46,715 nucleotides of DNA, taken from a virus (lineage: Duplodnaviria > Caudoviricetes). Location: the IMG/VR virus record IMGVR_UViG_3300030397_000540, positions 1 through 46,715 of that record, one strand, 5' to 3'. Position numbers and translations under genes: made by a program. The notes beneath the pieces were generated by a model that was given only the letters and a program-made list of their open reading frames with translations, ran no database searches and was not told the DNA's origin. Shown here piece by piece: positions 2,957 through 35,817 of the stretch (within the stretch, counting starts at the first letter, position 1; each line of letters starts with the position of its first letter).

Positions 2957-3190
2957 TTATGCCAATGTTGACTGGGGGTATTCACCGGTTTCTGATACCA
3001 GTCTATTGAATTCTCCAAGTCCCAATTCAAGTATCAATTGATAATGATCCTGTTTGAAGACTGATTTACTTGTAGGAACCAAATGGATACTTTTTCGGTA
3101 TGCTTCCTCGATACCTTTAATCACATTCTCAGCTACCTTATGTGGGGGCAATTGCTTCCTAGCCGTGACAATTCCGTTCACAGTATCCAT
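2957..3190 (-). CDS. First gene of the leftward early operon, possibly Cro-like
   Basis: Small ORF divergent from the XRE repressor. Confidence 0.5.
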   Translation of the reverse strand: MDTVNGIVTARKQLPPHKVAENVIKGIEEAYRKSIHLVPTSKSVFKQDHYQLILELGLGEFNRLVSETGEYPQSTLA

Positions 3191-3316: not shown

Positions 3317-3727
3317 GTGACAGCAAAATTCTTACAACTAGTTGAAAAACTAAGGAGAAAGCATAACAATAAGATATCATATGCTTCAATTGCTAGAAGG
3401 ATAGGAATCGACGGTCAGAAAATAACAGACATGAAGCGGGGCGCTTCCTCTGCTGACCATGAATTAATTGATAAACTCTTAATAGCCTACCCTGAACTCA
3501 AAGAATCAGAACCAAAACAAGACGACAAAAACCTACAAGCCCAATACGAAGCACTGAACGCCAAAGTAGAAGCGGGCTTTGAAGAACTTAAGAAGATAAT
3601 CGTTGAAATGACCGTAGAACAACGGGCAAAGTTTGAAGCTGAAGTTGAAAAGCAACTTGGAGATCAGATTAGGGAACTAGAGGAAAGACTGGATAAGAAA
3701 GCGGAAAAACAGAACAAGAAAGATTAG
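3317..3727 (+). CDS. XRE-family HTH repressor (CI-like) with a coiled-coil C-terminus and no S24 peptidase domain
   Basis: ISYASIARRIGIDGQKITDMKRG helix-turn-helix; divergent switch layout. Confidence 0.75.
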   Translation: MTAKFLQLVEKLRRKHNNKISYASIARRIGIDGQKITDMKRGASSADHELIDKLLIAYPELKESEPKQDDKNLQAQYEALNAKVEAGFEELKKIIVEMTVEQRAKFEAEVEKQLGDQIRELEERLDKKAEKQNKKD

Positions 3728-3745: not shown

Positions 3746-3770
3746 TACACAAAATAAACCGATGATGACA
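3746..3770 (+). repeat. 25-bp direct repeat, copy 1 (copy 2 at 4347-4371)
   Basis: TACACAAAATAAACCGATGATGACA is identical at both gene starts. Confidence 0.9.
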
Positions 3771-4340
3771 GAAAGGGAAGCGATAATCTGGAGTCATAGA
3801 AATGAAAAAAGCCCTGCTATTGCATTTGTATTAACGCTTGTATTTAGTTTTCTTGGCGCATGCTATGCCGGTGGCTGGGCCATCTTGTCAACATTACTTT
3901 TCCATTGTTTATCTTGGTTTATGTGGTTCGTCATGGGTGCAAGCTTGGTCACTGGCACCGGAAGTTCGTTTGGCGGGTATTTCTTCGCGGGAATAATCCT
4001 GTACTTCATTCCGATCATTATTGTAGTGGGGAAAGTAAGAAGACACAATTATCAGGTGCAACAGGCTAGAATTTTCCTGCACAATAAGGAAAGTGGTCAA
4101 AATAGCCAAGATGAAATAAAATTACCGTCCGTAAAATTGCCTCCTGAAAACCGGATCGAAGAATTTGTAAATCATATAATGGAACATCGAGGCTTTGACC
4201 TGGAAGATATTTCTTGGAATTGCAAAATACCTATCGAGCGTTTACAGAACCCCGATGATCAGGAACAGGCCTTGGTTGATGAAAAAACTTTGATAGAAAA
4301 ATTTCCTGAGCTAGAAGAATTATTGGCAGAACAGGAATGA
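3762..4340 (+). CDS. TM2-like membrane protein with a C-terminal soluble (possible HTH) domain; candidate superinfection exclusion
   Basis: KSPAIAFVLTLVFSFLGACYAG TM2-like motif; about three hydrophobic segments; in the repressor operon. Confidence 0.6.
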   Translation: MMTEREAIIWSHRNEKSPAIAFVLTLVFSFLGACYAGGWAILSTLLFHCLSWFMWFVMGASLVTGTGSSFGGYFFAGIILYFIPIIIVVGKVRRHNYQVQQARIFLHNKESGQNSQDEIKLPSVKLPPENRIEEFVNHIMEHRGFDLEDISWNCKIPIERLQNPDDQEQALVDEKTLIEKFPELEELLAEQE

Positions 4341-4346
4341 GTAGAT

Positions 4347-4371
4347 TACACAAAATAAACCGATGATGACA
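4347..4371 (+). repeat. 25-bp direct repeat, copy 2
   Basis: Identical to 3746-3770. Confidence 0.9.
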
Positions 4372-4731
4372 AAAGAGCAAGCCGTTATTTGGTGCTACCG
4401 CCAGGAGGCAAAACCGGAGGTAGCAATCGTCCTCACTTTCATGTTTAGTTTCGTTGGCGCCTGTTATGTTGGCGGATGGTCAATTTTGATAACATTCGTT
4501 TGCCATGCGGTTGCTTGGTTCATATGGTTTTCAGTTGGAATATTCTCAGTAATGTCACTGTTTTCTAGTACTGGTTTGACTGGTGCAGCATTAGACCCGG
4601 TTTTAATGGGACTCTCTGCCGTTGTATATTCGGTGCCTATGTTTGTAGTATTTGAGCGATCGGTAAACTACAACAAGCAAGTTAGAGAGGCCAGGGCGGT
4701 AATTCATGAACTTGAAAAATCTAAACCATGA
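4363..4731 (+). CDS. TM2-like membrane protein, paralogue of 3762-4340
   Basis: Shares MMT-E-A-IW and VLT--FSF-GACY-GGW-IL with the upstream gene. Confidence 0.7.
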   Translation: MMTKEQAVIWCYRQEAKPEVAIVLTFMFSFVGACYVGGWSILITFVCHAVAWFIWFSVGIFSVMSLFSSTGLTGAALDPVLMGLSAVVYSVPMFVVFERSVNYNKQVREARAVIHELEKSKP

Positions 4732-4760
4732 TAATAGTAAACGACATATGCGGAGGATAA
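4728..4760 (+). CDS. Micro-peptide MIIVNDICGG (10 aa), DIxxx family
   Basis: ATG overlaps the stop of the upstream gene (ATGA coupling); motif shared with four other units. Confidence 0.6.
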   Translation: MIIVNDICGG

Positions 4761-4813
4761 TAGACACAGACATTTGCGGGATGATTGTAGTAGGCGATAT
4801 CGACGGCTGTTAG
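4748..4813 (+). CDS. Micro-peptide MRRIIDTDICG-MIVVGDIDGC (two DIxxx units; the internal ATG at 4781 gives 10-aa MIVVGDIDGC)
   Basis: Direct translation; degenerate tandem DNA repeat of the 4728 unit. Confidence 0.55.
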   Translation: MRRIIDTDICGMIVVGDIDGC

Positions 4814-5133
4814 CCTTCATTACCTTGATTAACCTTCCTTTCCAGGTCACCAAAAGCAATTTTCAAAGCCTCGGCTTCAGCAATCAGTATTCCGGCGTAC
4901 ATATACCCTTTGCCGGTCTTCATTCCTCCAGCGTCCACCAGGTACCCAAACTTATTATAGGACCGAGTAATCAAAATCTTAATTCCATTTTCTTGAAAGA
5001 ATTCAATTAGCCGCTCATGGTCTTGCATTTCTTTTTTCCAATGGTGGGGGTGCTTCTTTTCGAAATGCTGTCGGCACTTGGCCAGGGCTCCAGGCGCACT
5101 AATCTTAATTTGGTGCCATTCTTCGCGTGTCAT
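4810..5133 (-). CDS. Hypothetical protein translationally coupled to the HTH-TPR gene
   Basis: 107 aa; ATGA overlap with the stop of 5130-6536. Confidence 0.75.
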   Translation of the reverse strand: MTREEWHQIKISAPGALAKCRQHFEKKHPHHWKKEMQDHERLIEFFQENGIKILITRSYNKFGYLVDAGGMKTGKGYMYAGILIAEAEALKIAFGDLERKVNQGNEG

Positions 5134-6536
5134 TTGCTATTTACTTGTTGATCAATAAAATCAAGCAACATTTCATAGGGGACAATTTCCAAATCTACAT
5201 CCTGCCCGGTTTGGTCGATGGGATTCTTATCCAACTTACGGGCATATTTTTGAACATCAAATGAATTGAAATTGTTTCGGGCCAGATCGATGACAGCGTT
5301 TAGGATTGTCCGGGGGCGAATATTATTTGCAGAATTTAGATAGCGCCGGGTGTAACTTTCCAAGGCAGCCAACCGGTCTATAATTTGTTCCGGCTTACCT
5401 GCAGCAAGGTAATGCAACATCTCCAGCATGTAAATATTGACGTTATAGGCAGTCTTGTCACTTTGAATAAACGGCAATTCATTCATTAGTTTACCCAGCT
5501 TTAGCCGCTGGTCGGTCATTAGACAAGCGTAAGCCGTGATCAGTTTCCAATACTCCTTAGTTCTACCTACCATCTTTTCAGTATCACCACTTTCAGAGAG
5601 CCGGAAAGCTAAATCAAAATCCCCCTGGTGCAAAGCGATAACCATAGCGTATCTTTTTGCCAGGTAATAATTATTAGTTCCCTCATCAAAAAGAGAAAGG
5701 CATTCTTTTAAGCATTCCACAGCGCGAAATAGATCGCCCGTTATGATATAGATCGGCAGCATCCGAAAATTAAATGAAAACAGCGGTGAATTACTCTTCC
5801 GGGTAGTCGAATTGAAATAGTCAAGCGCTTTTTGGCAAGTTTCGATTACATCGTTATACCGGCCGGCGGTGATGTAATAAACAGCCAGTAGGTTATAGCC
5901 AATATAGTATGTACGGTAAGATTCCCGGGAGCCCAGGATAATTCGTACCTCTTTGGCAATGCGCTCCATACGGACCATGTTGGAAATATTAAACTCCATG
6001 CAGAATTCACAATACAGATGCTGCATTTGTTGCTCTGCCTCCAGTTTTGCCTTGCATTGAAAGTGAATTTTCTTGTACCGGTTGTATAAATCCCGGTTGG
6101 TATCGAGTACAGAGTAATAATAGTAGATCCAATAGGACAAACTAGCTGCTACATCATTGAATTCATATTTCATCGCCTTCTTAATGGTCTGCTCTGCAAT
6201 TGGTATTGCCTTAGCAATGGAATGTTCAAATATCATGATTTCAACTAAGGCTTCCGTTTTTTTTAAGCTCCGGTAAATTGATAGGCGCTTATCGAGACTG
6301 TTGTCGGTTCTCATTGCCAAGGCTGTATTCACAAAGGCATCGAACGATCTATTCATCAAAAGCGAAAATGCCGATGGGTCTAACCCTATCTCTTCCCTGG
6401 TCTGGTCAATCGTGGCGGCTGAGTTTCTATATAGAATTTGATGCAATTCGTCCGCTCTTTGTTCTTTCCCTAATATGTTGATACGCTTTATTTTTGAAGG
6501 TTTGATGTGTTGAGCCAGGATGGCAATGTGTTTCAT
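5130..6536 (-). CDS. Helical-repeat (TPR-like) protein with an N-terminal HTH-like segment; candidate peptide-responsive regulator, 468 aa
   Basis: TIDQTREEIGLDPSAFSLLMNR is HTH-like; TPR-like helices LLAVYYITAGRYNDVIETCQKALDYF, IYIITGDLFRAVECLKECL and IALHQGDFDLAFRL; start placed at MKHIAIL. Confidence 0.7.
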   Translation of the reverse strand: MKHIAILAQHIKPSKIKRINILGKEQRADELHQILYRNSAATIDQTREEIGLDPSAFSLLMNRSFDAFVNTALAMRTDNSLDKRLSIYRSLKKTEALVEIMIFEHSIAKAIPIAEQTIKKAMKYEFNDVAASLSYWIYYYYSVLDTNRDLYNRYKKIHFQCKAKLEAEQQMQHLYCEFCMEFNISNMVRMERIAKEVRIILGSRESYRTYYIGYNLLAVYYITAGRYNDVIETCQKALDYFNSTTRKSNSPLFSFNFRMLPIYIITGDLFRAVECLKECLSLFDEGTNNYYLAKRYAMVIALHQGDFDLAFRLSESGDTEKMVGRTKEYWKLITAYACLMTDQRLKLGKLMNELPFIQSDKTAYNVNIYMLEMLHYLAAGKPEQIIDRLAALESYTRRYLNSANNIRPRTILNAVIDLARNNFNSFDVQKYARKLDKNPIDQTGQDVDLEIVPYEMLLDFIDQQVNSK

Positions 6537-6630
6537 AACAGTGTACTTTCGTGATCGAATTAACAAAAACTTTGAAGCACTATGAAGGTGGGCATGCATG
6601 TAGATTTATAAAAACCAAAATCTTAATGCT

Positions 6631-6681
6631 ATGACTACACAATCAAAGATCGTCAGCGGCGAAGACATCAGCTGTGGATAA
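6631..6681 (+). CDS. 16-aa peptide MTTQSKIVSGEDISCG, divergent from the HTH-TPR gene
   Basis: A-rich leader, in-frame stop upstream at 6601, hairpin directly after the stop, and paralogous motif elsewhere in the genome. Confidence 0.7.
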   Translation: MTTQSKIVSGEDISCG

Positions 6682-6685
6682 AAGT

Positions 6686-6710
6686 GCCACCGCGTAAAAC
6701 GGTGGCTTTC
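6686..6710 (+). terminator. Hairpin after the peptide gene (weak terminator or processing site)
   Basis: GCCACCG-cgtaaaa-CGGTGGC followed by TTTC. Confidence 0.6.
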
Positions 6711-6713
6711 AAA

Positions 6714-6732
6714 CTAATCAATATATGATTAG
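6714..6732. promoter_or_regulatory. Perfect inverted repeat CTAATCA-N5-TGATTAG, candidate operator or hairpin
   Basis: Seen directly. Confidence 0.45.
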
Positions 6733-6807
6733 AAGCAGCACGCAGTGAGAAGGGCCTTTCAACTCAATTCCTTACCCTTTCTCATAAAATAAAACACTGC
6801 ATGATCT

Positions 6808-6840
6808 AAAGCAACCCGTACCGGGGTTGCTTTTATATTT
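6808..6840 (+). terminator. Rho-independent terminator
   Basis: AAAGCAACCC-gtaccg-GGGTTGCTTT followed by a T-rich tract. Confidence 0.75.
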
Positions 6841-6955
6841 TTATTTTGCTAAATTACCCGAATATTTCTATAAAACAAGTCCCTCCCATCAGGTTTAGCA
6901 AAAGATAAGGAAAAAACACTGCTACATATTTTAAATATTAATAATCCCTTACTCA

Positions 6956-7108
6956 ATGAAATATAATGTAGTAGTAAGGCTGGAAAGCCTTTACCAAAAA
7001 ACGACTGTTATGCGACCCCATGATCAAAAAATCACTGAAGGCCGCATTTTTTTTACAATTTTGGATCGGGTCAAAAAAATAGCCCTGGACAAGTCCAAGG
7101 CTAAGTAA
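6956..7108 (+). CDS. Small basic hypothetical protein, 50 aa (MKYNVVVRLESL...ALDKSKAK)
   Basis: Manual translation; AT-rich leader; below the ORF-track cutoff. Confidence 0.4.
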   Translation: MKYNVVVRLESLYQKTTVMRPHDQKITEGRIFFTILDRVKKIALDKSKAK

Positions 7109-7870: not shown

Positions 7871-8434
7871 CTAATTCAAATCAAAAGCAAACTTTAGCGT
7901 CTTTTCGTGCTGCGCCGGTGTTCGGCCTCCGTGCCAGGGGGGTAGCACTTCGATAAATTTATCTTCGTCGACTTGGAAGCGACTTTCTAGCCGATCGGGC
8001 CATTCTGATAGAATCACAATTCTATAATCGCCGGGCGATAGCCTTTCAATGTAACCATGGTAATCTTTGTCGGGCTTGACCTTACCTATGGACCCATTTT
8101 CCCAATCGTAATTGTTGTTTACATATGGTGTTATCTCAATATTTTCTTCGCCTGGGATCCGGTGACGGAAAGCTATCAAAATGGCTTCCTTGTCATTGCG
8201 ATTGAATAACCATCCGAATAACCCGCGGTACCAGGTAATACCACCCACTTTCAACCATTCCTTTTTCCGATCGCCAAGCGCTTCTATTTGTTCTGCAGAC
8301 AAAATGAAACTCGAACTGATATTAAAAGTGAAATCAATACGATTGAGTTTCTTTGTCTTCCCGATCAGAAAGGACCACGACCATATAGGCGATGAGGCTT
8401 TTTTCCCAGTCTTGAAGGTGTAGGTAGCCATCAT
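7871..8434 (-). CDS. Hypothetical protein in the lysis-cassette position
   Basis: 187-aa Trp/Gly-rich ORF coupled to the upstream gene. Confidence 0.7.
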   Translation of the reverse strand: MMATYTFKTGKKASSPIWSWSFLIGKTKKLNRIDFTFNISSSFILSAEQIEALGDRKKEWLKVGGITWYRGLFGWLFNRNDKEAILIAFRHRIPGEENIEITPYVNNNYDWENGSIGKVKPDKDYHGYIERLSPGDYRIVILSEWPDRLESRFQVDEDKFIEVLPPWHGGRTPAQHEKTLKFAFDLN

Positions 8435-9270
8435 TCAATCTTGAAAGTGTTAATCAAAATTCGCGGCTTAACGTGATTGATATACATATCCATTATGTAT
8501 TTCGAAATTTCCAAATAACCTCCATAATCATAATGAAGCTGATCACCGCTTAAGGTAAAATTGCTCGGCTCAGTATCGAGGTAGTAGACATCTTTCGCAG
8601 TAGCTGCAATGTTCTTTTGGGCTGTTACGATGTTGTTAATATAAGGGTAAGAACCTATAGGAATGTTTGGATTCGTCCCGATTATAATAACCGGAATATC
8701 ATAACCCAAAGCTGCCCTTAAGTCGCTTAACATTGAATTGAAATCCGCTTCCCACTGTAGGCTGTTTGCCTCGGTATCCCCTGCCTCCGCTTCGCCCTGG
8801 CACCAAATCGCCACACTGGCGGGCCAGAATATTTCGGAATTAGTATACCGTGTATACATGGTATCTATCATTAATTTTAGGTCTGAGCCGCCGCCAAACC
8901 AAAAGATGCTACTTGCATACGGGACAAGCGCCGTTCCGCCCCGGGTGCATTTCCAGACGACGTATTCGAGCGAATCCTGATCATGCTGTTCCAGCATTTT
9001 ACCAAAGAAAATGTCAATGCCGGTCATTTCTTCCTGCCCCGCCTTAACCGCTACAGAAAAGTTGTTACCCGGATCGAGCGGAACAATCTGATTTATTTCA
9101 TCATCATACCCCAGGGTCGTAGTAGCTTGAAAGTAGTTTTCTACATTATAGTCCACTGAATCCAATCGCCCGTCCGCGTTGGACTGCCCCAGCAGGAAAA
9201 TAGGAACATGCTTTTGCCCGTTGGCACTCAGCCCGGCCAGCATCACTAAGACAAATAAGATATTCTTCAT
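8431..9270 (-). CDS. SGNH/SASA sialate O-acetylesterase-like protein with a signal peptide
   Basis: GQSN, GGT, WCQGE and DQLHY catalytic blocks; N-terminal MKNILFVLVMLAGLSANG-Q. Confidence 0.85.
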   Translation of the reverse strand: MKNILFVLVMLAGLSANGQKHVPIFLLGQSNADGRLDSVDYNVENYFQATTTLGYDDEINQIVPLDPGNNFSVAVKAGQEEMTGIDIFFGKMLEQHDQDSLEYVVWKCTRGGTALVPYASSIFWFGGGSDLKLMIDTMYTRYTNSEIFWPASVAIWCQGEAEAGDTEANSLQWEADFNSMLSDLRAALGYDIPVIIIGTNPNIPIGSYPYINNIVTAQKNIAATAKDVYYLDTEPSNFTLSGDQLHYDYGGYLEISKYIMDMYINHVKPRILINTFKIE

Positions 9271-30051: not shown

Positions 30052-31463
30052 AATCGTTGCTGTAATTTATTCAAACTGTCGAATTGATCGTCATGAGCTT
30101 CTACCGGATCGGTTGACATATGATCCCGAATGTCTGCCGCGTTGTTGATGTCATCGTATCCCCGGGGAAAAACCATGTGAACCAGGTACCGGAAGTTATC
30201 AGCCTGGTGAAAACCGTTTTCATCCGATTTCTTGATATTGTCGTTATCGTCCGGCATGGCCGCTTGTAGATCATTGATGAGCGGTGAACAGTCATTTACA
30301 TGGATGAACACCAGCCCCCGGGTGAATGCATGGTTTACAACCCGCCTGGAGTACCTTAGACGCGGATTCTGATTGCCGGTATGTCGTATCTGTCGATTAC
30401 TGAGGTCGAAAGCATCTCGTATGATACTGTAATCAGTGTTCATTTCGCCACCCCGACCCAAACCAGCCGATGAATGTCGGGCTTTACCGGAAATATCACC
30501 GGTGACAATTAACCCGGCTTCATGTTCCTTATATCCAAACTTCAACATTTCATTGCAAAGTGCTTCTGTACCGCCTTCGACCTCAAAGGACCGGAAGACA
30601 AACAGGCCTTTTCCGGGAATGTCCTGGCCGACTGAACACGTACACGGTGATACATTGAAGTCAAATGACAAATAGATCGGCTCGAATGGGTTGATTGTGT
30701 ATGAATCAATCGTGTGAAGTGAATAATTAAAGGAATTGAACCATGGATCGTCATTCAGAACAATATCCCAATCGCCGTCCAATAGGCGGGCTCGGTCCCC
30801 AGCACTTAATTTCATAAGCTGCCGCCGGTACCGGGTAGCAAACCCTTTATCCGGGTTGTCATCTAATCCGAACCGGACTACCTTTTGATAAGGCTTTAAT
30901 TTAATCGGCCGGCCGGAACGGTCTTTAATGTAGGTCCATTTTACCCAGTTATTAGCCGGATTGCCGGTCATCAATATTTTAGGGGTGTCGTTGATCAGCT
31001 TAAACCGGATCCGGGATTCCAATATTTCCTTTACCCGTTTGGGTACCTCGGTTACTTCATCAATCGCCGCGTCCGTAAGTTCAAGGGATCCCAGGTTTGC
31101 AACATCACCATGCCGGATCTTCAGCCAGCGGAATAGAATTTCAGAACCGTTGTTAAATTTAGCAGTATGCCCAGAAAAAGAGATTTTGACACCGAATGGA
31201 TTGAATTGCCCGAACTTCTGCCAGGTTTCCCCAAAAGTTTTCATTGTGGTGTCTTTCAAGTCGGTAAAAGAGTACCGACCAATTAACCCCCGGGTACCCT
31301 CGTACTTTGTCCGCCGGTACTGCTGCCACATACATATCAGAAACGATTTTCCGCCTCCAGCCGACCCACCGGCAAAGACTTCATGAATATCATGATCGTA
31401 TTCCAGGATGTTCCAAACCTCTTCCTGTCGAAGTGACAATATGCGGTCGGTAACTACTTTCAT
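30048..31463 (-). CDS. terL: Terminase large subunit
   Basis: Walker A GGSAGGGKS, Walker B AAIDE, TGNP coupling motif, and nuclease SFDFN and HQADNFRY. Confidence 0.95.
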   Translation of the reverse strand: MKVVTDRILSLRQEEVWNILEYDHDIHEVFAGGSAGGGKSFLICMWQQYRRTKYEGTRGLIGRYSFTDLKDTTMKTFGETWQKFGQFNPFGVKISFSGHTAKFNNGSEILFRWLKIRHGDVANLGSLELTDAAIDEVTEVPKRVKEILESRIRFKLINDTPKILMTGNPANNWVKWTYIKDRSGRPIKLKPYQKVVRFGLDDNPDKGFATRYRRQLMKLSAGDRARLLDGDWDIVLNDDPWFNSFNYSLHTIDSYTINPFEPIYLSFDFNVSPCTCSVGQDIPGKGLFVFRSFEVEGGTEALCNEMLKFGYKEHEAGLIVTGDISGKARHSSAGLGRGGEMNTDYSIIRDAFDLSNRQIRHTGNQNPRLRYSRRVVNHAFTRGLVFIHVNDCSPLINDLQAAMPDDNDNIKKSDENGFHQADNFRYLVHMVFPRGYDDINNAADIRDHMSTDPVEAHDDQFDSLNKLQQRL

Positions 31464-34361: not shown

Positions 34362-34760
34362 TTAAAATTCAAATCCATTTTCTGATACTGACAAATCACC
34401 TTGAAAGCACCACAGATGATACATATCAGCCTGATCAACGATTTTATCCCGTTTCGGGTAAACCTGGACAGCTTGCCAATCTTTTCCGGCCAGCTGGTCT
34501 TTAATTCGCTGAAAATGGGCCCAAGGGATGAATCTTTTGCCGTCATGGCGCCGAATCCAAAGATGTATCACTTGTCCGCCGAATACTTCAGAATCAAACC
34601 TGGAGAATTGGACGGAATAGGCATTGTTTGCGACTGCCTTGTAGATTGATCTGTTTGTATGGTGCTTTAGCACATGAGACATATCATCCCATGTGCCCCA
34701 TTTCTTGATCGGTGTGATAAGCTTGTGTGTCATCTCTTCAATTTTTAGCGTTCGTTTCAT
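34362..34760 (-). CDS. Conserved hypothetical phage protein
   Basis: HLWIRRHDG...W--FQRIKD...AVQVYP...VDQADMYHLW motif family. Confidence 0.75.
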   Translation of the reverse strand: MKRTLKIEEMTHKLITPIKKWGTWDDMSHVLKHHTNRSIYKAVANNAYSVQFSRFDSEVFGGQVIHLWIRRHDGKRFIPWAHFQRIKDQLAGKDWQAVQVYPKRDKIVDQADMYHLWCFQGDLSVSENGFEF

Positions 34761-34766
34761 GTATTG

Positions 34767-34802
34767 TTACCCGAAAACAATGTCTTCGACGATAACAATC
34801 AT
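34767..34802 (-). CDS. Micro-peptide MIVIVEDIVFG (11 aa), DIxxx family
   Basis: Fills an intergenic gap in operon orientation; IVxxEDIxxG-stop is shared with the 6631 peptide. Confidence 0.65.
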   Translation of the reverse strand: MIVIVEDIVFG

Positions 34803-34829: not shown

Positions 34830-35525
34830 TTAGTCAGCAAATTCGCGCTCTTCATCATATTCGTATTTTCCATCAACCAATTTGTACATCTCCTTGTCGC
34901 CTGGCCAAAGTTTGAAAGCCAATTCGTAGGCCTCAATGCTCTGACTCTCTGGAATTGCACTCTCAATAGCTTCGCCATTTATGTATCTGTACATGGCACA
35001 ATTGGAACCGGTATCTTCATCTGCCCATTCATAGATAAATTCTACATTCGGGAATCTCTGACTCAGTTTTTTAATGAGATTGGGTACTCCATTCCATGCG
35101 GTTTGAAACATGATCACATTTTCCTCTTCATAGCTGCTGCTATAGGCGTTCCACTTCGTACCCCAGTTTTCTTTTGCCCATGGATACCATGTGGCATGTC
35201 CAAACTGATTTGCATTGTCCTGGTATTTGAATCCCATTTCAAGTATTTCCTTCTGCTGTTTTCTGGTGTATCTGTCAAACCTTCGCCATATTTCTTCTAT
35301 ACCTAAGAACATGCTACGCCCTTTGCCGAATAAAATGGCTTGGCCCATGTCTCCCCAGGAACTAATTTCGATATCCAATTCCTCGGGCATTGGAATCAGT
35401 TTGTTAAAATCGAAGATCCTTTCGGTGCCGTCATCATACGGTTTACCGATCATGAATTCTTTTACCTCTTGGACCTTTTGTTTGGTCCCTATAATTTCAA
35501 GTCTGTTTTGGATGTGATTTGGCAT
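34830..35525 (-). CDS. DUF1281/YubB ferredoxin-like domain protein, 231 aa
   Basis: MPNH--N-L, FDFNKLIPMP, NWGTKWNAY and FQTAW motifs. Confidence 0.8.
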   Translation of the reverse strand: MPNHIQNRLEIIGTKQKVQEVKEFMIGKPYDDGTERIFDFNKLIPMPEELDIEISSWGDMGQAILFGKGRSMFLGIEEIWRRFDRYTRKQQKEILEMGFKYQDNANQFGHATWYPWAKENWGTKWNAYSSSYEEENVIMFQTAWNGVPNLIKKLSQRFPNVEFIYEWADEDTGSNCAMYRYINGEAIESAIPESQSIEAYELAFKLWPGDKEMYKLVDGKYEYDEEREFAD

Positions 35526-35541
35526 GTCTTTCAATTTTAGG

Positions 35542-35817
35542 TTAGGGAATGGGGTTAAATGACTCAAACTTCTCTTTGACGTCCTCATAATCACCCATTA
35601 CCAAGTATTGGATTTTGGGAAAAATACGGGCAATCAATTTTGCCTCATATTCATCATTGGCGATGATTTCAACCGGAGGCATGCCCACAACATCAATCTG
35701 AATTCTCATAATAGCTTTGTTTTCCCTCTCATTGAGCCTGGAAACAAGATCCTCTAACAACTTCAATTTGTCGTACAAGACTTGAGCAGCCTCGAATTGG
35801 TCTGTTTTCATTATCAT
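35542..35817 (-). CDS. Hypothetical protein
   Basis: 91-aa ORF next to attP. Confidence 0.65.
   Translation of the reverse strand: MIMKTDQFEAAQVLYDKLKLLEDLVSRLNERENKAIMRIQIDVVGMPPVEIIANDEYEAKLIARIFPKIQYLVMGDYEDVKEKFESFNPIP

Follow-up and report, generated by a model that had tools for sequence, protein, structure and literature searches.

A nameless family of putative receptors in Bacteroidota adjoins tiny peptide genes and occurs in a temperate phage with four leaderless candidate peptides

Peptide signalling of the RRNPP type (Rap/Phr, Rgg/SHP, NprR/NprX, PlcR/PapR and PrgX) has been described in Gram-positive Firmicutes and in their mobile elements (PMC10075063, PMC10569065). Whether a comparable system operates in a phage of a Gram-negative host is the question raised by the virus record IMGVR_UViG_3300030397_000540, whose whole length of 46,715 nt, with direct terminal repeats of 108 bp, was analysed here and is called the window. 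In this genome, the gene of a 468-aa protein with tetratricopeptide repeat (TPR) architecture lies head-to-head with an open reading frame (ORF) of 16 codons across a 94-bp spacer, an arrangement which the original prediction had read as an arbitrium-like receptor and peptide pair with a helix-turn-helix (HTH) domain. The layout itself was found exactly as described:

5130-6536, minus strand: receptor candidate of 468 aa, with a small N-terminal helical domain (possible HTH, residues ~19-75) followed by a TPR superhelix
6537-6630, no strand: divergent spacer of 94 bp; its 12 nt at 6613-6624 recur without mismatch in the 5' region of the L008 peptide gene
6631-6681, plus strand: divergent peptide ORF of 16 codons (MTTQSKIVSGEDISCG), the likely cognate peptide, leaderless, with A at -13, -12 and -6
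6686-6706, no strand: GC-rich hairpin, possibly a bidirectional terminator

An alternative in-frame ATG at 6599 would extend the receptor to 489 aa; the start at 6536, and with it the spacer of 94 bp, was preferred because the closest homologue begins at this position. Sequence comparison indicates that the pair belongs to a receptor-peptide family which is real and apparently undescribed, and that the phage carries one such receptor together with four leaderless candidate peptide ORFs. No account of this receptor family, or of RRNPP-type signalling in Bacteroidota, was found in the titles and abstract openings of the literature searched.

The family comprises 2,643 clusters at 50% identity and is named by no model, either for the query in Pfam, PHROGs and NCBIfam or for its members in Pfam and NCBIfam. 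The family of Saprospiraceae proteins of about 500 aa, on which the original prediction had drawn, does exist: the 79 genome loci are mostly titled Saprospiraceae, Lewinella, Chitinophagales and Hymenobacter, 77 further loci come from metagenomes, and most chromosomal members have 480-530 aa. The sampled metagenomes are aquatic and sludge ones. The partner peptides of the family are unannotated. Five genomes hold 17, 4, 13, 6 and 15 matches (weak and partial ones counted), and a single query detected the family in 85 of 401 genomes belonging to one bacterial family; across the phylum, 25 of 401 genomes had it, with three candidates scored per genome. Since cultured strains carry it (Lewinella cohaerens and several Hymenobacter), the family is open to test with synthetic peptides. 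The search for a second phage or virus with the receptor returned none among viral contigs, annotated phages and a viral fold library (E<=0.001), and the family is a chromosomal one. The two closest relatives of the phage receptor, known as protein records, are 45% and 39% identical to it, while the nearest relative with DNA (L008) is 30% identical; the phage receptor nests with the former two in a clade of 30 leaves with a support of 1.00 (FastTree, midpoint root). Within the family, about seven receptor paralogues, some of them fragmented, follow one another in tandem at locus L202 (G003:C1:7497109-7511626), and smaller arrays occur in L002-L004. The loci L018, L019, L062, L067, L074 and L079 bear the titles Nitrosomonas, Thermoanaerobaculia, Alphaproteobacteria, Janthinobacterium and Kordia; they cluster with Saprospiraceae or Hymenobacter and are likely mis-binned contigs.

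A gene-free gap of several hundred bases is typical upstream of the receptor genes. Short ORFs located in this gap, or just downstream of the receptor in other clades, end with a common motif composed of three aliphatic residues, one variable residue, Asp, and then Ile or Thr. A profile of this motif, obtained from 43 ORFs near 77 genome-derived receptor clusters with the window excluded, was applied at a threshold of at least 10 bits to 62 held-out receptors with 1 kb on each side. A motif ORF was present within this distance for 27 of the 62 receptors (17 divergent upstream, 9 co-oriented downstream and 1 co-oriented upstream), compared to 5 of 223 ends of other genes taken as controls (upstream ends, 2 of 107; downstream ends, 3 of 116), none of them in the divergent-upstream or co-oriented-downstream position. 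The expectation that homologues would be flanked by peptide ORFs with a conserved acidic C-terminal motif was supported. In a later set of 20 loci (the 25 nearest to the query, minus 4 previously seen and 1 with short flanks), the best-scoring motif ORF lies upstream in divergent orientation in 19 loci, and its score is at least 10 bits in 10. At the family level, receptor genes adjoin tiny peptide genes with a shared end motif beyond chance. The motif is conserved as protein, the synonymous codons under it being mixed; peptide type and position track the receptor clades in the tree, which points to co-inheritance and not to specificity. Variations on this scheme were also registered: in L066 the receptor is followed downstream by a gene (6252-6500, minus strand) for a longer protein, apparently a secreted one, which has the same end motif as the divergent peptide of that locus, two tandem peptide-like ORFs stand beside one receptor in G001:C17 (near 143968 and 144272) and in G001:C53 (near 112758 and 112950), and a further peptide-like match in G001 (C8:37771-37830) is far from any receptor found.

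The chromosomal motif ORFs look expressed, judging from the signals around their starts. An A at -12/-13 precedes 81% of 61 peptide ORFs and 31% of 300 controls, an A at -3 is found in 52% versus 25% of the same sets, and the element TAnnTTTG occurs within 150 nt of 32 of the 61 peptide ORFs versus 230 of 1,846 controls, 22 of the 32 lying at 28-52 nt. Both A-rich starts and TAnnTTTG are given as translation and promoter signals of Bacteroidota in PMC6847099. Terminator hairpins are not enriched after the peptide ORFs (17 of 61 versus 88 of 300). The 66 peptides compared divide into 26 with a leader that is hydrophobic according to a hydropathy rule, 5 with a double-glycine leader, 33 with another N-terminus and 2 with almost none; in three of the five double-glycine peptides the motif begins directly after GG, and L244, L247, L251 and L241 encode tandem-repeat precursors. 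NCBIfam names no peptide, the best matches (E 0.03-0.04) being models of double-glycine leaders. The Hymenobacter clade features a different, Gly-Trp-rich precursor with signal and repeats (9 of 11 loci), after which come genes for an oligopeptide-binding protein and a permease, in 10 and 9 loci respectively. These precursors have 63-89 aa, a hydrophobic N-terminus and mostly tandem Gly/Trp-rich units, and are encoded ~350-380 bp upstream of the receptor on the opposite strand:

L042, L056, L063, L064, L068, L072, L076, L078 and L079: loci with the Hymenobacter-type precursor

An oligopeptide importer is of the type used by RRNPP signals (PMC10569065), and the presence of cultured strains makes the loci with precursor and importer a good test system. 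Response regulators and sensor kinases are recurrent neighbours of the receptors. A nameless Cys-rich gene of ~145 aa, negative in Pfam, accompanies 29 of 157 receptors at a distance of up to 2.5 kb, in most cases directly beyond the peptide gene (e.g. L095:6123-6572, plus strand); it is a candidate regulated gene or third component, and it is absent from the phage.

In position, the phage peptide ORF conforms to its clade. DNA is available for 21 loci of the clade: a divergent motif ORF of at least 6.5 bits is present in 17, one more was recognised by a hydropathy rule, and the remaining 3 belong to tandem receptor arrays. The 16-codon ORF occupies this divergent-peptide position, and the 12-nt stretch just upstream of its ATG is common with L008. 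Its motif is preceded by six mostly polar residues and no leader, in line with the absence of a signal sequence previously noted. What the original prediction had overlooked, while describing this one peptide ORF, is that the window contains three more motif ORFs (ranks refer to its 1,244 small ORFs):

4728-4760, plus strand: leaderless motif ORF of 10 codons, rank 4/1,244, 9.8 bits; its start overlaps the stop of 4363-4731; A at -13, -12 and -3
4748-4813, plus strand: leaderless ORF of 21 codons with two tandem motif units, rank 2/1,244, 14.4 bits; the frame is open from 4706 and has an inner ATG at 4781
34767-34802, minus strand: leaderless motif ORF of 11 codons, rank 1/1,244, 16.8 bits; A at -13 and -12

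The first two close the presumed repressor operon with an array of three motif units spread over two frames. The third is flanked by two genes of its own strand, one of the DUF1281 type (34830-35594) and one of DUF7694 (34362-34760), and occupies the gap that separates them. Both -13 and -12 are A in three of the four phage motif ORFs. Short ATG ORFs of at least 9.5 bits number 4 in the window, versus a mean of 1.1 and a maximum of 3 over 60 shuffled versions; natural DNA distant from receptors has 0.74 in the same length. At 14 bits or more there are 2, versus a mean of 0.03 and a maximum of 1 in the shuffles. The excess is real but modest in comparison to natural DNA. Viral contigs were also searched with DNA patterns for leaderless peptides: one search gave 4 matches, all judged chance (three antisense to T4-like genes and one in a low-GC, receptor-less prophage), and a second gave none.

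The fold of the receptor was modelled with AlphaFold2 from 82 sequences. The predicted structure is all-helical, with a predicted local distance difference test score (pLDDT) of 91.8 and a predicted template modelling score (pTM) of 0.85, and its TPR superhelix starts at about residue 80, so that the TPR part of the earlier description stands. At the sequence level, Pfam TPR matches fall under the curated cut-offs, and the receptor profile matches the kinesin light chain TPR at E 1e-6. A comparison of the model with 48,161 chains ranked highest MalT domain III (Z 17.5), RapI (17.4), the Rap of phage phi105 (17.0), pLS20 Rap (16.2), NprR (16.1), LGN (16.1), Pins (16.0) and AimR (15.5); RRNPP members account for five of these eight, which align with a root-mean-square deviation (rmsd) of 4.7-6.5 over 262-301 residues. 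The model is best described as a TPR solenoid of the peptide-binding class, a fold which by itself is no proof of RRNPP descent. K361, N365, Y395, R398 and R407 are near-invariant in the family alignment, and the phage receptor is intact and retains the family's conserved residues.

The resemblance to the RRNPP systems goes beyond the fold. In both, the gene of a TPR protein adjoins a small peptide gene, it is the C-terminal part of the peptide that is conserved, leaders are varied, paralogues per genome are many and an Opp-type importer may be nearby, here in one clade; the structural similarity extends from RapI (rmsd 5.0 over 294 aligned residues) and NprR (5.7 over 271) to PlcR (Z 12.4, 5.6 over 237). 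The present hosts differ in being Gram-negative Bacteroidota, the receptors have no Cro/XRE HTH match, and some precursors are of the double-glycine or tandem-repeat kind. No RRNPP protein is among the 24 PDB sequences matched at E<=1, and no RRNPP family model was matched. In PMC10075063 an RRNPP pair is described by a receptor of 250-500 aa, TPRs and an adjacent propeptide of 10-100 aa (-60 to 400 bp) with a Sec or SHP-type export signal. The phage pair shares four of these five features, with a receptor of 468 aa, a TPR superhelix in the model and a 16-aa peptide at 94 bp, and lacks the export signal; the Pfam TPR matches are below the HMM threshold quoted there. As the export signal is missing and the receptor is not an AimR, the pair was filed neither as RRNPP nor as arbitrium. 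With the arbitrium AimR/AimP of Bacillus phages it has in common the occurrence of a receptor-peptide pair in a temperate phage and a related fold (AimR, rmsd 6.5 over 301 aligned residues); unlike in arbitrium, the phage peptide gene is divergent and leaderless, three more copies lie in other operons and the family is chromosomal. No match to AimR (PF22871) was found in Pfam for the query and 82 members, an atlas score of 0.81 being a lead only. The label "arbitrium-like" was an overstatement for a chromosomal family with no second phage, no AimR sequence homology and a phage peptide devoid of an export leader.

Rgg and SHP genes are typically divergent. The chromosomal clade of the phage receptor has this very layout, with a hydrophobic peptide gene of ~20 aa; it differs in showing no homology to Rgg/SHP, the recurrent neighbours include no PptAB-like exporter, and the phage peptide is without even a short hydrophobic leader. 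SHP is exported via PptAB (PMC10075063). The MalT domain III and the TPR domains of LGN and Pins resemble the receptor as closely as the RRNPP folds do, and MalT differs from it by an ATPase domain that the receptor does not have. A further likeness is with PrgX, a mobile-element receptor whose state is set by competing host-made cCF10 and element-made iCF10, both of which are exported. By analogy PrgX may serve as the model for the reading proposed here, with the difference that the phage peptides appear to stay inside the cell.

According to this reading, the phage would have captured a family peptide sensor from a Saprospiraceae-like host, and its four leaderless peptides would stay intracellular and set the state of the sensor; taken as a whole, we regard it as possible, at somewhat below even chances. 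In the hosts, the precursor would be exported by its leader, trimmed to a C-terminal 8-10-mer and re-imported. The mature peptide would then be bound in the TPR groove of the receptor, a step that is, by analogy, highly probable, with K361, N365, Y395, R398 and R407 as candidate readers of the Asp and the backbone of the peptide. The N-terminal domain would regulate the transcription that starts in the spacer common to both genes, after the pattern of Rgg/SHP or PlcR/PapR, DNA binding by this domain being a reasonable though less assured expectation. In the phage, the start of each of the four motif ORFs coincides with that of the mature unit or falls shortly ahead of it, where the double-glycine leaders of the hosts end, and for this reason their products resemble ligands that are ready for use inside the cell. 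Expression from the presumed repressor operon and from a presumed early operon would supply such copies at separate stages, and these would vie with host peptides taken up by the cell for binding to the phage receptor. That the phage in this way listens to host signalling against an internal threshold, via stage-specific competing peptides, is a tentative proposal. More speculative still is the broader picture, namely a Bacteroidota-wide counterpart of RRNPP with thousands of receptors and clade-specific peptide codes, in which a phage with a captured receptor and leaderless, pre-matured peptides in lysogenic and lytic operons would read or overwrite the host conversation and decide its life cycle. 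If true, intracellular peptide sensing would be extended to two-membrane cells and a large hypothetical family would acquire a function; leaderless signal copies in different phage operons would be a new phage design, with no precedent in the titles and abstract openings searched.

Several results weigh against such a reading. The 16-codon ORF matches the motif weakly (2.7 bits, rank 23 of 1,244), rising to 8.2 bits and rank 8 with a one-residue gap, a spacing to which L215 and L022 carry similar motif variants. One of the four window ORFs of at least 9.5 bits, that of rank 3 (30326-30403), is antisense to the terminase and was judged chance, and the count at 14 bits or more exceeds receptor-distant natural DNA modestly (2 versus 0.37 per equal length). 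The exact TAnnTTTG element was not found in the phage spacer, 28 spacers yielded no operator motif, the phage spacer has no convincing repeat elsewhere, and no target gene, of the AimX type or another, was identified in the phage. As to the family, 35 of the 62 held-out receptors have no motif ORF at 10 bits or more, and the linkage counts are not fully independent because the seed pattern was composed after viewing the first loci and because paralogues, and relatives of the training genomes, are among the held-out loci. In a phylum-wide set just 7 of 28 receptors reach 10 bits (21 do not), two of the 7 being apparent antisense shadows, which suggests that in distant clades the motif drifts or is missing. 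The transporter linkage is confined to the single Hymenobacter clade. With regard to the fold, MalT, LGN and Pins tie with the RRNPP members, and Foldseek returned nothing at E<=0.001 for either the whole receptor model or the N-terminal domain. The HTH of the earlier description is no more than possible: residues ~19-75 folded alone match the HTH of DesR, AldR/LrpC, EsrB and sigma-4 at Z 5.4-5.8, below the noise level of 8, i.e. LuxR-, Lrp- and sigma-4-type classes, with no XRE-type HTH among the structural matches listed and no PF01381 match in 82 family members.

The phage itself is, by its gene content, temperate: integrase, terminase subunits, holin and anti-repressor were recognised in Pfam and PHROGs searches. 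This setting bears on the idea of an arbitrium analogue, in which the leaderless peptide would build up, be freed at lysis, enter neighbouring cells via host uptake and tilt later infections to lysogeny through the phage receptor. An integrase-bearing phage whose module adjoins the presumed immunity region, with AimR and a phage Rap among the nearest folds and host peptide uptake apparent in one clade, would suit it; against it, none of the four phage ORFs has a leader, compared to 31 of 66 chromosomal peptides with a hydrophobic or double-glycine one, and the chromosomal nature of the family, with no other phage among the sequences searched and no AimX-like target identified, speaks the same way; we regard this explanation as unlikely. 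We give a similarly low probability to signal jamming, where the peptides would mimic mature host signals and switch or block the paralogous receptors of the host, the phage receptor being a passenger or protecting its own module only. Hosts do have several paralogues (4-17 matches in the five genomes, weak and partial ones included), the three extra ORFs are nearer to the host consensus than the cognate one (9.8-16.8 versus 2.7-8.2 bits), and the ORF at 34767-34802 is 28 kb from the receptor in window coordinates. The intact receptor with its conserved residues counts against jamming, and no host receptor could be matched, the host itself not being pinned down.

It is improbable, to a greater degree, that the pair is real and acts outside transcription, with the TPR protein acting on another protein in a Rap-like manner or the peptide being a stoichiometric inhibitor or substrate. 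Rap proteins score equal to any DNA-binding RRNPP member while the HTH matches are below noise, 35 of 66 peptides have no recognised export leader, and response regulators and sensor kinases recur nearby; exported signals would instead account for the leaders, for the precursors with tandem repeats and for the oligopeptide importer next door, and a scan of 18 neighbour clusters showed no recurrent modifying enzyme. Finally, the phage ORFs might be chance or decayed remnants of a captured host module, as the weak score of the 16-codon ORF, the array split over two frames and the one chance match of similar score in the window would allow. Against it stand the position of the 16-codon ORF, which is conserved, and its 5' match of 12 nt, together with the sense orientation, operon gaps and A-rich starts of the others and the above-shuffle counts; we regard this as very improbable. 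Sensing of competing peptides by a captured receptor is the reading retained here, at the strength given above.

The host is likely a member of Bacteroidota, as previously proposed, which fits both the clade of the receptor and the integrase matches: among 56 integrase records, 27 are Porphyromonas, Cellulophaga and Bacteroides phages, which make up most of the named ones, and 25 are nameless. In the bacterial family to which the Saprospiraceae metagenome-assembled genome G001 belongs, terminase relatives were found in just 5 of 401 genomes, the best being 40% identical; none was found among the viral contigs searched. Contigs from three runs of one study, possibly the source, show 0 indels and 0 substitutions across 4300-6900. 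A sigma-70 promoter scan of the window is unsuited to Bacteroidota.

The hairpin said to close the 16-codon ORF is real, with z -2.7 on the plus strand and -3.7 on the minus strand; the better T-tail is on the minus strand, where the terminator scan places it, and for this reason it may also insulate the module from late read-through. Around the module lie the following genes:

3317-3727, plus strand: presumed repressor, by position only, divergent from 2957-3190
3762-4340 and 4363-4731, plus strand: two paralogous membrane proteins (39% identity across 121 aa), located after the presumed repressor and before the peptide array
4810-5133, minus strand: ORF of 107 aa with no known family, whose start overlaps the receptor stop; candidate co-transcribed partner of the receptor

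The location of the module beside a repressor operon agrees with the earlier account as to position, whereas the identity of the repressor finds no HTH or repressor family match in Pfam or PHROGs. The duplicated membrane proteins (3762-4731) possibly act in superinfection exclusion, and a TM2-like label for them is a weak lead only. Beyond the hairpin, an ORF of ~32 codons from the ATG at 7011 (7011-7108, plus strand) converges on the end of the late operon, closes in a hairpin at 7080-7103 and is motif-free. A short tandem repeat is located at the genome end (9-146), inside the terminal repeat region, and a gene similar to sialic-acid acetylesterases (SASA) is found at 8431-9270 on the minus strand, amid tail and lysis genes.

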